NCBI GenBank assembly: GCA_031269945.1
Contig: JAISYK010000012.1
Span: 1,785-65,784 of the forward strand
Source: Candidatus Endomicrobiellum calonymphae
Lineage (GTDB): Bacteria; Elusimicrobiota; Endomicrobiia; Endomicrobiales; Endomicrobiaceae
Direction of reading: 5' to 3'
Length of the DNA stretch: 64,000 bases
Shown here one piece after another: positions 1 to 6,254 of the stretch. Positions within the stretch are counted from its first letter, which is position 1. Every line of letters starts with the position of its first letter. The position numbers were made by a program, and so were the translations under genes. Under the pieces are notes generated by a model. That model was not told the origin of the DNA. It saw only the letters and a program-made list of their open reading frames with translations, and did not search any database.

Positions 1-177
1 ATACCCCCCAAAAGAAAAAAACGACTTTAACAGTCGCCTAATTTTTCTTCTCACTGTGTGTGGGGGGGGGGAAAAAGAAGTAAAAAAAAAATGTTACCCT
101 ACGATACTTCAATATTTTAGAATTAACGTTGTAATGGGAACTGGTACATCAGTGTTCTGTTAATTTATTTGTATTCT

Positions 178-629
178 TTATTTTTTTAAATCTATTATCC
201 TTTCTTTATGCTTGTAATCCTCTATTTCTTTAAAGTAGTCATACTTGACGCGTTTAGGAACAAAATTCTCCTTTACCTCTACCAATTCTCCTTCCGAGTT
301 CCATTCGAAGCTATTTAACCCCTTACCCTCTGACATATCGACGATAAATGCCAATTCCTTCTTAGCCCTTAAATATTTACTTAATTCAAAGTTGAACTCT
401 TCGAAATCTCTTTCAGTTTCAATTATTAAGAAGCATGAAATCTTTAGGGGGTTGTCTGTTTTTCCTAAAATCTCTCTTATATCCCCAAATTCTTTCCCTA
501 ACGCAGTCTCTTCATCTGTAATATAAATATAGGCTTTCCTGTCATATAACCCTTTTTCATAGCGTCTCTAACGTTGTTATAACGAAATATTTCTACTCCA
601 TGTTCATTTAGTTCCGTAGTTTCAGCCAT
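178..629 (-). pseudogene. Frameshifted hypothetical protein (150 aa if one A is restored in the A5 run at 553-557)
   Basis: GAGG RBS then ATG at 629 (MAETTELNEHGVEIFRYNNVRDAMKK); -1 frame stays open from GLYDRKAYIYITDEE to IIDLKK, TAA at 180-178. Confidence 0.6.
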
Positions 630-724
630 TTCTTTTTTTCCTCACAGGGAAATAGTCTTTGTGTGTGTAATCTCTTAAAACAAGCTGGCATAGCGTAATT
701 GCCCATCAAATTTGCATATTTGAA

Positions 725-1741
725 TTAAATCGGGGGTGGACCCATATTGCGAGGATGTTCTAAAGTTTCAAGGTTAAGGTTAACGAACATTGTTTCAAGT
801 TGATCTATGATGAGCTTTCTTGAATCCAGCTTTGTAGATTGAGATTTCATTGTAGAAATCATAAAAGCTTTATATCTTTCGAATAATTGTTCTGGCGATG
901 CAGTATGGTGAAACTTTGTTTTTTTACTTTCGCTAAGCTTCTTTGTGAGATTTTCAACTTTTTGAACTAGGAATTCTCTACGTTCTTTATATAGAGGATC
1001 AGTAGAAGAAATTCTTCTTACGGCCATTTCATAACGTACTTCTTCGTGTTTATTTGTTATTGCTATGTTGTATTTTTCAATTAGTTTTTCTTTAGACCAA
1101 ATTTTTCTTATATAGTATCTTGGTGCATAGACAGGCTTACCATTATGAACGACTTTCCCTTCTTCTCTTACCTGTTTTGCATTGTCTATAATCCATCTTT
1201 TTCCTAGTCCTTTTGACATAAGCCTAAATGGTTTATTCTTTTTGTCAATTGGGTATCTAGGACTTTTTAAAGCGTATCCAGTTACATAAGCTACATTTGC
1301 TTCTAATTTCTTTACTTCCTCTGTTTTATTAAATCAGAATTTCCAAGTCTTATCGACTATTGGTTTAAGTTCTTCAGCTGAAATTTTCCCCAGAATAATT
1401 GAGTGATAATGTGGATTTTTCCCTTCCTCTCTAATACCTCTACCATCACCACCTTCAGGTACCGTAAAGAATTTTATTCTTTCCTCTTTCCCGAACTTTC
1501 TAGAAATATGTTCCCGAAGGCGTTTTTGCCAATCTTGAACATCCTTTTTTTTGAATGAATAGTCTTTTGGGAGGGAATCGTTATCATAAGTTAAAGTAAT
1601 AAACAGGCTGTGGGTGTGATATAAAGCTTCATGACTTAATCTTACTTGCCAATTTAAAGAGTCATTCCTTTTACACAATACACACTTATTGCAGGGAACA
1701 TACATTCCCTTAACATGCTTTGGATGTAGGCAAGATATCAT
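725..1741 (-). pseudogene. HUH rolling-circle replication initiator, Microviridae VP4-like, interrupted by one in-frame TGA (1336-1334)
   Basis: ORFs 1334..1825 and 725..1219 share a frame with 38 open codons between them; N-terminal CLHP..PCNKCVLC, motif I FITLTY, KRLR, motif II PHYHSII, motif III YVTGYALK, F.LMSKGLG, PRYY. Confidence 0.88.
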
Positions 1742-2337
1742 CAGTTTGCTGACTTCACTTACTATTGAAATTATTGGAATTATTGGATAATTAGAGCTGA
1801 TTTGTGACGTGGAATTTGTTCCCATTGCTCTGAGAGAGGTCTAGCCATATAACCAAAAAATGTATGTTGTTTTTTTAATATTTATTATGTTACAATGACT
1901 ATTGGCTGTTGTGTGACTGCTTGCTGGACCTCATAAACTCCTTCGAAAGTTGGGCTCTTTATGTGGTCCCATCCCTTTTTGTGATATTCGATTGTCACTG
2001 CATAAAAATCCTATTTTTAATTCTCCTTTTTATTGTATTGTGGCAATTGACAGATTTTTGAATTTATTGAGGATAAAATTCAAACTGTAAGAATGCTGTT
2101 AGCAATGAAAAAAGTGCAAAAAAGTGTTGATGTTACAGTCTGCTGTTGGTGTTTGCTTCTTCGTAGGATGTTACTTAGTTGATGTACAAATTAAAATTAG
2201 GCAAGTATGGTTGACATATTAGATGGGTTATTGTTACGACACTAGTTGGCTAAATTCGCAAGTTTATTTTTGTAGTTGCTCTTTTGACGAGCAAGCGTAT
2301 TTTTGTGTAGCATGGCTTAAGTGGTAGGTGGGGGTAT

Positions 2338-2409
2338 GCGGGCGTAGTTTAGTGGTAGAACGTCTCGTTGCCAACGAGAAGGTCATGGGTTCAAGTCCCA
2401 TCGCCCGCT
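2338..2409 (+). tRNA. tRNA-Gly(GCC)
   Basis: Acceptor GCGGGCG/CGCCCGC; anticodon arm TCTCG-TTGCCAA-CGAGA; GGTTCAAGTCC T-arm; no encoded CCA. Confidence 0.97.
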
Positions 2410-3180
2410 TTTCTGTGTTTTAGTGCTTTCCCGGTACATTTGTTTTTTTTCGTTGCCGCATTTATTGTATCTTTTTTGTCTTTTAGTTATATGTGTTTTG
2501 TTTTCTGTGTTATTTCCTATAATGCTCGCAATAAGTGTTTCGCCATTTGTTACATGAGAATTTTTCGCTATTTGTCCTACAAAGCTCAGACATGTAGTTC
2601 AGTTTTGCTGTTCTTTCCTATTATATTTAGATACCCTGTATAGTAATCCAAATTTGATAACTTTCAATAATTCAAATTACAGTTCCTGCATTCCCCATTA
2701 AGAATGATCCTCTCTTTTGCTATGGCTTAGATTATAGCTCCAATAGTGCCTTCGATAAATATATTTATTATGAGTTGTTTTACTCTAATCTCGTTAAGTT
2801 TACACTTTATTAAAATTAAACATTTTTTCATAATAATAATGCTCCTAAAAAATTCCTATTGAAAATATTAATTTAGTTGTCATTAGCATAAATATGATAT
2901 AAACATGATAAATATATATAAATATGAATTAAATTTATATTTGAAAGTATTTGTCCGTCTTGGGTAAAGGGGTTGCATAGTATTGGATTTGTAGATCTTG
3001 GTTAAAAATATAACAACAAAAGGTGACTTGCTAAAATACATTTCCAGAACAGAAAATTGTTATGAAAGATTATTTAGTAAATTGTCTAAAAAAAATAGAT
3101 AAGCTTGATAAAGAAGTAAAAAAATATGTGTAAAGACAAAGCGACTGCAGATACTCATCTTAATGGTGGTAGTTTCTGTT

Positions 3181-3570
3181 ATGGATAACAAAAAAAAAAG
3201 AAGAACAACTAAATTTTTGTATGTAACTATTTAGAGAATTACCAACTATTTGTACGTGTCAGTGGACGAATTTGGGTCTTCGAGCAAATATATTTTAGGA
3301 TTGCTGCTTTAGCAGTTTATTTCGAAAAATTTCTCATCTTATTATGTGTAAATGAGAAAGAGTAAATTTAATTATGCTCAACTTGCCTAATAAAAAGTGT
3401 AATAGTTCGTGAGTAAATAAGTCAATGAGAAGGAATTTTTTATTTTACTTTAACAGTTTTTTTTAAATGTCGGCTGCAACGATTTTGCGGTCAGGAAATA
3501 AATATAATTGTCTATAATTTTTGTCGTATAAGTATGTTTTTACATGATATAAATTCGGTAAAGTGGAAGG
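3181..3570 (+). pseudogene. hsdM: Type I R-M methyltransferase HsdM remnant with large internal deletions
   Basis: Fragments MDNKKK, YILGLLL*QFISKNF and GQEINIIVYNFCRISMFLHDIN match HsdM N-terminal and GQE(I/L)N..MFLH motifs. Confidence 0.75.
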
Positions 3571-3899
3571 GAGATTCTGCCTTTTTTTAATTAATGATCT
3601 CTTTGTTTATTTTGGTTTGAAAAATATGTATGGTACGGTGGGGCGGCAATAAGTTTTGTCTTTTGATGTTTTGTCTTTAAAGGTAGTGCAGGGCAAAAAA
3701 TCCGTAAATATTTAATTAATAGTAATTTTATATATACAATAATCCAACTTTTAAAAGATTTGTTTTTTTGCACGAGTATATTTTTATATATTATTATCTT
3801 AAAAAAATAAGGCTGATAGTAAAGCACTTTTTGTTTATGTGAATGCTGAGAGTTTGTTTGCGTTATCAACAAAAATAAATTTTTAGATGATAACGCCAA

Positions 3900-5245
3900 A
3901 ATATTAAAATCTTTTTCAGATTTAAAAGACATAACGTATTTTGCCAAATTTGTACCGAACGACGATGTTGTTAAAATGACTGTGGTTTTACAATAAACTC
4001 TTAGAGCAAAGGGATACTTGCGAGGCTGTGTGGACATAAAAAAGTTAATACTAAGATCGCGGTTTGCAGATAGTAAGAAGATAAAAGTGAGCCATGCAAA
4101 GAAATTGATGGAATAATTTCGAAAATAGAAGATTGAAAATATAAATTAAATTAGCAACCTTAGTAAAAGAAGACATATCAGTTATTTGACAGTGGGAATG
4201 GTGGATTATGACGTTTATTTTAAAACTGATTTTGATCCATAATCAAAAGACAAGAGACAAGAGATAAATTTAAAAATTAACATAAAAATGTCCCAATAAG
4301 AGTTTAAAATCGTGATATTGATTTTAATAATATGCAGTATTTCGATCCTACGCCGCAAATACTTTAGATGAACTTTTACAGGTGTTTGGCGGAACCAATC
4401 TCGTTTTAAACTCTGTTAAAATATTTGGTGATATTAATTTATTCCCGTGACTTAGAAGAAAAAAAACTAACGAAGCAATAGCGTTATTTGGCAATAAGTA
4501 AACTTAGGTAATGGTCTTGTTAAATCTTATTAAAAAGAATATTACTGAAGGGTTTAAAAGGATAGAGAATTAAATATGGTATACAGAATTAATTACCTAA
4601 CTTAAAAAGAACTTTCCATTGCCAATAAGTATTTTATAGGTGATTAAGTCGAGAAAAATTTTACAAGATTTTATAGGGGAGATAATATTTAAGATCTTTT
4701 GATGAGTTTAATGGCAATAGAATTTTACAGATAAAGCTTTCTAAAATTATTAAAGTGACTTAGCTTATGTTGATCTTTATCAAAAATTAAAAGATGGCTA
4801 TGATGTGCTGATAAAGGAAACGTTAACTATGCTATTATTGTTTTTGAGATGGAACTAATTGATTGAGCAATTTGTGAAGTCAATTTAAATTGTATCTTGA
4901 ATTTAGCAACTAAACTAAATACCTGAGATATAAAGAAATTTTGACTACTATTGAAAAAGTGATAAATTCAATAGTAAGTTTAGGAAGTAAAAAAGAGCTT
5001 ATAAGGAGACTTTATTAATGCTATAAATAGTAAAATGAATAAATCTGATGATCGGAAAAAGTTTTTGGATAAGCAAAGATATCGAGGTTTAGATAAAATT
5101 ATAAAAGAAGAAACTCTGAAAAAAAATAAGCCAAAAATTTTTACAAAATAATTTATCGATCTTTGGCGAAAATAACATTCGTACAAAAAGAAACAGTATT
5201 AGAAAAACTAAGAATATTTTTGAAAACTATTTTGAAGTTTGAGTC
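3900..5245 (+). pseudogene. hsdR: Type I restriction subunit HsdR remnant (EcoR124I-like C-terminal half); left boundary approximate
   Basis: Fragments LLQVFGGTNLVLNSVKIFGDI (cf. QA.SRTNR...K.FGNI), TNEAIALFGNK, FEMELI, LDKIIKEE, KETVLEKLRIF; many stops and frameshifts. Confidence 0.75.
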
Positions 5246-6254
5246 ATATTTTTATCGAAATTCAACGTGAATTTTTTTTCGACAACTACATAAGCTGTGC
5301 CCATGGGTAGGTGGGGATAAAACACTAAATTTTTATAACCAGAAGTAAAATAAGGTAATGAAAGATTTGAATTTGATGCTAAAGCAAACAATACTTTACG
5401 TTTGTAAATACAAATAGTAGAACTGGAACCGCTCTCATAGGCCTATAAATTCTTAATTATTTTGTTGACGTGGAAGATTCTTCATATACCTTTTCTTACA
5501 TCTTTCATCCATGTGCATGTCATGGAAGACATAATATTTTTGTCTGTTAGATTAATCTTTATAAAATTTTTTGATCAGTCTTCAATAAACGACTTCGATC
5601 CTCTTTGTATACTATAGTATCTTTTCCATACCTATTTTTTTTTGAAAATACCTAAAAGTTTCTATATCAAGAGATGTATAGAAGGTGTATTATAATTAAT
5701 CACTATGTAAAAAAATATGAACAATGAAGAAACATAACTCGTCTTTTATCTTTTATTTTTAGTTTTATCTAATGTACTTATGCATATACTGATTCTATAA
5801 AATGCAGTGAAATCAAGACATTCTTTTATTTTTCGCTAGTTTATCAGCTTTCTCTATCAATTTGTATGTCTTTCCTGTTGTTCCAATCTATTAACCTCAC
5901 TGTAACTTCTTGTTAAGTTTATCAAGATAACTTTCTTTATGTGGCGAAATACCACCAAGTTTGGTTCCGCATAATACTTTATAAACTCATCCCTTATTTT
6001 ACCTCTTCATTACGAAAAGTTTATCTTTAACATTTACATGTTTAGACGCTGTTTGGCAGAATATTTTTCAATATTAGAATAAAATCAAAATATATTTACT
6101 CTGAAATCTAAATTATATAACTCAAAAAATTCATAATAAATTAACTACTATTAATTTTTACTTTAATATTGCCACTAGCTATATCATATTTTATGAATTT
6201 ATAATTGAATAATTGATATAATAAATGTGTTTCATAATTGCAAAGGATCATTTG

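Follow-up and report, generated by a model that had tools for sequence, protein, structure and literature searches.

The left end of a 64,000-nt stretch of an Endomicrobium chromosome (hereafter the window; C12:1785-65784 of G000, a MAG of 808 kb in 13 contigs, 83% complete, genetic code 11) holds what we judge, at a probability of roughly 70%, to be a defunct integrated rolling-circle module that probably travelled without a capsid; a gap in the assembly leaves room for a decayed provirus. The replication module would consist of two genes, one for an HUH initiator (Rep) of the microvirus type and one for a lineage-restricted partner (ORF2), closed by a hairpin terminator. Both genes are broken, and the element therefore appears to be locked in the chromosome and decaying.

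Probable insertion between two host tRNA genes

To the right of the module, the first host feature is tRNA-Gly(GCC) (window 2338-2409, plus strand; C12:4122-4193). In the congeners G001, G063 and G067, the gene order is gap-pgk-secG-tRNA-Leu(GAG)-tRNA-Gly(GCC)-der, with 36-74 bp between the two tRNA genes. In G000, contig C11 closes on the right with gap-pgk-secG-tRNA-Leu and then 2.0 kb of DNA without a match, and 4.1 kb precede tRNA-Gly on C12, with rep and ORF2 inside. The tRNA genes are thus parted by at least 6.1 kb of foreign DNA, compared with 36-74 bp in congeners, indicating a lineage-specific insertion into the chromosome. The foreign DNA would take up window 1 to ~2,300, C12:1-1784 and the last 2.0 kb of C11. 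We infer the C11-C12 junction from synteny, the middle of the island being unassembled; the contig-end overlaps found were only those of C7 with L015 and of the left end of C11 with C9, and no contig spans the step from C11 (right end) to C12 (left end). With the junction so inferred, the synteny break in the tRNA-Leu/tRNA-Gly spacer is the integration into a host chromosome that is expected of a provirus. Between the 3' end of tRNA-Leu and the right edge of the island we found no att-like repeats, and among the ORFs tested in the assembled parts of the island none resembled an integrase or matched a Pfam or PHROG family.

The preliminary description, made from the letters of the window, had placed the element in a reduced endosymbiont chromosome and held that it arrived long after its neighbours had decayed. 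The first point is supported, and we place the host in Endomicrobium, since its congener G067 has a contig identical in sequence to NZ_AP017461, a plasmid of Candidatus Endomicrobium trichonymphae. As to the second, the closest congeners, G001 and G063, carry neither Rep nor ORF2, and the insertion therefore post-dates their split from this lineage. To the right of tRNA-Gly, 3.8 kb free of ORFs extend to der (window 2410-6224) and align at 65-68% with genes of G027:C1:133267-139955, which marks them as the wreck of ordinary chromosomal genes and bears out the proposed contrast between old pseudogenes and a young element; the same tRNA-Gly-to-der spacing in E. trichonymphae is only ~90 bp.

The idea of a two-gene unit did not survive, since the insert measures 6.1 kb or more and includes intact ORFs of higher GC as well as the unassembled gap. 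A second Rep-ORF2 copy (below) adjoins a plasmid-type helicase. The genome has a GC of 32.4% and the island one of 34-40%, with 40% in C12:1-1784. Left of the window, on the strand opposite to rep, lie two intact orphan ORFs of 293 aa and 142 aa (L003:206-1087 and L003:1149-1577 on C12; GC 40-46%), the former with an N-terminus rich in Q, P, A and E. Neither belongs to a known family, and each matched only itself among 5.8 billion proteins. Possibly they are cargo that selection has maintained during the decay of the replication genes. The plasmids of E. trichonymphae showed no homology to any island protein.

The raised GC in the left part, and the position of both Rep copies within 3.6 kb of contig ends, could also be expected if C12:1-~4,100 were a separate plasmid or phage misjoined to the chromosome. 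We regard such an assembly chimera, or a free replicon, as very improbable: the contig passes from rep through tRNA-Gly to der continuously and without a repeat; contigs of this assembler overlap by 119 nt, and no 119-mer of the rep-to-der stretch recurs in another contig; foreign DNA breaks the spacer on its tRNA-Leu side as well; and a Rep-dependent replicon would not be maintained if a nonsense codon parted the HUH motif of its Rep from the tyrosines. Identical 119-mers are shared elsewhere by contig ends, namely the right end of C12 and the left end of C13, the left ends of C4 and C6, and the right ends of C4 and C5. These are junctions of the assembly graph, where unbinned repeats border the contigs; one of them adjoins the second Rep-ORF2 site.

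A microvirus-type Rep cut by a nonsense codon

The rep pseudogene occupies window 725-1825 on the minus strand. From the first ATG its frame runs for 366 codons (1825 to 725) and is interrupted by a single in-frame TGA. Relatives start at the equivalent of Met29 (window 1741), so that translation probably began there, giving the ~338 codons of the preliminary description. Rep matched Pfam family PF23343 (1.1e-15, 58.1 bits; cut-off 27.8 bits) and phrog_942, annotated as 'replication initiation protein' (1.3e-54 over residues 18-326). When Rep is aligned with 13 relatives, the Cys cluster PCNKCVLC (window 1696-1673), motif I FITLTY (1603-1586), HUH motif II PHYH (1414-1403) and motif III YVTGY (1288-1274, reading on as YVTGYALK), all on the minus strand, fall in invariant columns, which include I76-Y80, H139/H141 and Y180/Y184/K187. 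Rep thus has the uuTLT of motif I, an HUH motif II and, in motif III, both tyrosines and the lysine, and the proposal that it is a microvirus VP4-type HUH Rep, first made on these motifs, is borne out by both family matches.

Among phage records, 2,663 matched Rep, all below 60% identity and mostly named microviruses; only 3 of 72,556 plasmid records did so, at ~25-33% identity. The best matches are at most 39% identical, with metagenomic microvirus Reps at 30-39%. Scans of GTDB genomes, JGI metagenomes and IMG/VR yielded no close relative, and a profile search of the PDB with the Rep alignment matched no solved structure. Compared with the Microviridae initiator (gokushovirus-like VP4, phiX174 gpA), Rep shares the Cys cluster, FITLTY, PHYH and YVTGYALK and the lack of a helicase domain. 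It differs in its stop codon, in a 6-residue insertion before the HUH motif, in a long C-terminal tail found only in the nearest clade, and in not standing beside VP1 or VP2.

By analogy with its family, a working Rep would nick a plus-strand origin (not found here) through the motif III tyrosines and so start rolling-circle replication. The TGA (codon 164; window 1334-1336, minus strand; placed on the 13-relative alignment) lies between motifs I/II and the catalytic tyrosines of motif III. Its column holds Gly in 13 of 13 aligned relatives, downstream of an invariant Trp161, and the change is therefore to a stop, not to a Trp codon. Code 4 mostly lengthens spurious frames; since host genes terminate at TGA, the host uses code 11 and the TGA in rep is a real stop. 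A code 4 reading of this TGA was ruled out by the host's TGA stops together with the conserved-Gly site. For a working gene one would expect an uninterrupted frame, and in this code-11 host rep is interrupted at codon 164. With the HUH metal site on one side of the stop and the nicking tyrosines on the other, neither half of Rep could be expected to act.

ORF2 and its broken frame

ORF2 begins 95 nt past rep and encodes an acidic protein of ~150 aa, spread over two frames by one frameshift (window 178-629, minus strand, read from 629 to 178). Nucleotide alignment with three related DNA copies (L014, L015 and L016) located a single missing base at window 530-545, minus strand, between GGAAAGC and CTATATT; an A-run at 551-560 is not the site. 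In L014, ORF2 is one continuous frame. The copies on C12 and L016 miss one base at the same alignment column, and L014, the closest to L016, keeps it. Either the base was deleted twice independently at this spot, or L014 has regained it by re-insertion.

The protein belongs to no recognised family. No match was found in Pfam, PHROGs, NCBIfam, 50,697 phage records or IMG/VR, in line with the earlier view that it is unlike VP5 and VP3, to which hhalign gave a probability of 0.3%. Scores in the ESM Atlas (at most 0.82) were at chance level, and an AlphaFold model reached a pLDDT of only 41.7. An exhaustive HMMER search of 1.84 billion proteins returned only four fragments as relatives, all from JGI metagenome 3300042616, one of them the protein's own cluster. 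The contigs L014 and L016 of that metagenome carry ORF2 fragments at ~80% identity, without rep. Between copies, the ORF2 core has a dN/dS of 0.16-0.43 at a dS of 0.7-1.7 (estimates from 50-100 codons). Taken with the differing lesions, these values imply that the copies diverged while working and were broken independently, and suggest that they parted as genes under purifying selection, not as dead duplicates.

That each gene has exactly one lesion, as described from the outset, might point to recoding, with the rep TGA read through or read as Trp, a programmed frameshift in ORF2, and both genes still expressed. The rep frame is fully open under code 4, and C12 and L016 lack their base at an identical ORF2 column. 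We nevertheless give recoding almost no credence. The TGA stops host genes and replaces a conserved Gly, not a Trp, and code 4 mainly extends spurious frames in the window; break positions differ among the ORF2 copies, L014 is open in one frame, and there is no slippery heptamer at the ORF2 frameshift site. On the preferred reading the module is dead, the Gly-to-stop change having cut Rep between the metal-binding HUH motif and the tyrosines, and ORF2 being one base short.

Hairpins and non-coding remnants

The module ends in a long hairpin (window 4-68; -28.6 kcal/mol, z -2.9), matched in quality by 0 of 200 shuffled sequences, which upholds the early mention of a long hairpin after ORF2. It lies 110 nt past the ORF2 stop, between ORF2 and the convergent orphan ORFs on the left, with terminator-like sites on both strands at window 19-39, and looks like a two-way intrinsic terminator. 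Upstream of rep, a short interrupted hairpin (window 1926-1969; 5+6 bp stem, 20-nt loop) is weak at -7 kcal/mol (z -1.5 to -1.8; 10-13 of 200 shuffles as good) and thus not above chance. It is at most a candidate origin or terminator, and the region is missing from the second copy. A 65-nt stretch further right (window 2048-2112, plus strand) is shared with that copy at 78% (L015:2113-2177); it is probably a remnant of the non-coding or promoter region of the element and sets a minimum for the right-hand extent of the insert.

A second Rep-ORF2 copy beside a plasmid-type helicase

A second, more decayed copy begins at the end of another contig of the same genome, where C7:1-365, 73% identical at the nucleotide level, covers codons 234-357 of Rep and contains a frameshift and a TAG. 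The metagenomic contig L015 (metagenome 3300042616) overlaps the C7 end over 119 nt at 100%, and continues through the rep stop into an ORF2 homologue broken at another site, a 434-aa helicase and a 146-aa ORF. C7 and L015 together align with the window copy without a break, at 74%, across the 3' end of rep and ORF2, which speaks for Rep and ORF2 travelling together. Genes flanking the second site are adjacent in congeners, so that this copy too is an insertion. The Rep C-terminus gave a dN/dS of 0.6 over 101 codons between the two copies, which is uninformative.

The helicase (L015:718-2022) is intact, consists of a DnaB_C domain only and overlaps the end of the second ORF2 copy. It matches phrog_19, and its identity to the helicases of small plasmids from Firmicutes is 32-37%; DnaB_C-only helicases of this kind are typical of Firmicutes plasmids of 6-14 kb.

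The preliminary description had proposed a search of the same metagenome for free circular copies. No related circle was found in the metagenome, in IMG/VR or in the genome scans. A more distant circle was recovered (L068; G036:C34:1-5288), binned with another Endomicrobium MAG, with a 119-nt terminal repeat, a length of ~5.17 kb and a GC of 27%. It encodes an intact Rep of 482-500 aa (phrog_942/PF23343) and five unassigned ORFs, has no capsid gene and is a candidate capsid-less Rep replicon.

Absence of capsid genes and spread of Rep fragments

The 1,784 bp of C12 that precede the window (C12:1-1784) yielded no capsid gene, and the VP1/F family PF02305 is absent from the 808-kb assembly, which is 83% complete and has the unassembled gap in the island. 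Searching the assembly by tblastn with three VP1 proteins and the VP2, VP3 and VP5 proteins of relatives gave nothing below E 0.2. In the assembled parts we thus found neither VP1, the pilot protein VP2 and the scaffold proteins VP3/VP5, which a provirus would be expected to have, nor the VP2-Rep-VP1 order of the Rep clade. The remark in the preliminary description that no capsid gene was in view accordingly holds for the DNA just left of the window and for the assembly as a whole.

Across the genus, PF02305 was found in 0 of 44 Endomicrobium genomes (a microvirus record used as positive control scored 3.6e-107), compared with PF23343 fragments in 9 of 44, including the chromosome of E. trichonymphae. 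HUH Rep fragments in Endomicrobium chromosomes include those on G024:C26 (L043) and G024:C65 (L070). Ca. E. trichonymphae carries a Rep fragment at G067:C1:831416-831586 (L045), and a 155-aa open fragment occurs in the species. A weak match in G000 itself (G000:C4:23711-23980; E 0.003, two stops) is a possible third Rep fossil.

All recognisable relatives of Rep are viral, those with visible gene context included. The closest of the latter (L006, L064 and L065) lie on contigs of 3-5 kb with a VP2-like gene, rep and, directly after rep, a VP1 that matches PF02305, in this order and with no ORF2-like gene; a further relative (L005) belongs to a tandem gokushovirus provirus, likewise without an ORF2-like gene, in a 206-kb bacterial contig. 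With every such relative a microvirus or a microvirus provirus, the window could hold the remains of a complete provirus whose capsid and pilot genes have since been lost by deletion or fall within the assembly gap, leaving Rep and a virus-specific ORF2. Reduced genomes lose DNA quickly, and the unassembled middle of the island could contain capsid genes. An ORF after VP4 has also been described in microviruses of termite guts (proposed subfamily 'Sukshmavirinae', order VP1-ORF1-VP2-VP4-ORF2; PMC5759034), which makes a virus with an ORF after rep a plausible ancestor. Several findings weigh against this origin. Neither Rep-ORF2 copy is flanked by VP1, and orphan ORFs or a plasmid-type helicase stand there instead; ORF2 is absent from the phage records and IMG/VR; and the 44 genomes of the genus show Rep traces in 9 and a VP1 trace in none. 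VP1 is the longest and best-conserved microvirus gene, and it should for that reason be the easiest fossil to detect. We consider a decayed complete provirus possible, and the less favoured of the two origins. It competes only with the claim of travel without a capsid and not with that of an integrated, dead module, and our confidences in these readings are not mutually exclusive.

Discussion

An integrated module for rolling-circle replication, with both genes broken, is the reading that the synteny break, the Rep motifs and the two lesions jointly favour. How the module travelled was posed at the start as a choice between an endogenous microvirus and a capsid-less element. Both are still alive; the evidence leans to the latter without settling it, and we put travel in a capsid-less plasmid-like or integrative element only slightly ahead of a decayed provirus. 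In its favour are the linkage of Rep and ORF2 in two diverged copies, neither with a capsid gene beside it and one adjoining a plasmid-type helicase, the occurrence of Rep fossils in the genus without any capsid fossil, and the L068 circle, where an intact Rep of the same PHROG is found with no capsid gene.

Microvirus proviruses are known in other phyla. Those of Bacteroidota ('Alpavirinae') and the enterobacterial gokushoviruses (Krupovic & Forterre 2011, as cited in PMC5759034), like the L005 provirus, resemble the window in having a microvirus-type rep integrated in a bacterial chromosome. They retain VP1, VP2 and the scaffold genes, L005 among them, whereas none is detectable here. Elusimicrobiota is not among the phyla named for microvirus prophages in the list given in PMC9753089. 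The 'Sukshmavirinae' share the termite-gut habitat and a gene after VP4; compared by description, that gene resembles VP5 in some contigs (PMC5759034), unlike ORF2 of the window, which resembles neither VP5 nor VP3. Rolling-circle and integrative plasmids with HUH Reps (Kazlauskas et al. 2019, PMC6668415) are similar in combining a Rep with accessory genes in the absence of a capsid, and in the DnaB_C-only helicase of the second copy. They differ in that the Rep described here clusters with viral sequences, and no origin, copy-control or mobilisation function was found with it. A network of HUH replicons ties microvirus Reps to plasmid Reps (PMC6668415), and because this link is published, a capsid-less element and a provirus would both fit known biology.

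One speculative extension, which we think less likely than not, is that Rep-ORF2 forms the core of an undescribed family of capsid-less rolling-circle elements that either descend from microviruses or are plasmid kin of their Reps. Such elements would circulate among the Endomicrobium that live in flagellates of the termite gut as endosymbionts, and would bring in orphan cargo genes by repeated integration into chromosomes that are themselves shrinking. Such a family would explain why Rep fossils occur in 9 of 44 genomes and capsid fossils in 0 of 44.

Since both genes are dead, the interest of the locus is chiefly evolutionary. The intracellular symbionts that live in termite-gut protists are thought to be mostly out of reach of mobile DNA. 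The recent insertion, together with the repeated Rep fossils in the genus, indicates that small rolling-circle elements still reach them. Links between viral and capsid-less HUH replicons are usually inferred from trees alone. Should Rep-ORF2 truly be mobile in the absence of a capsid, it would provide a natural case of the link proposed in PMC6668415, and would extend microvirus-type replication genes to the Elusimicrobiota.
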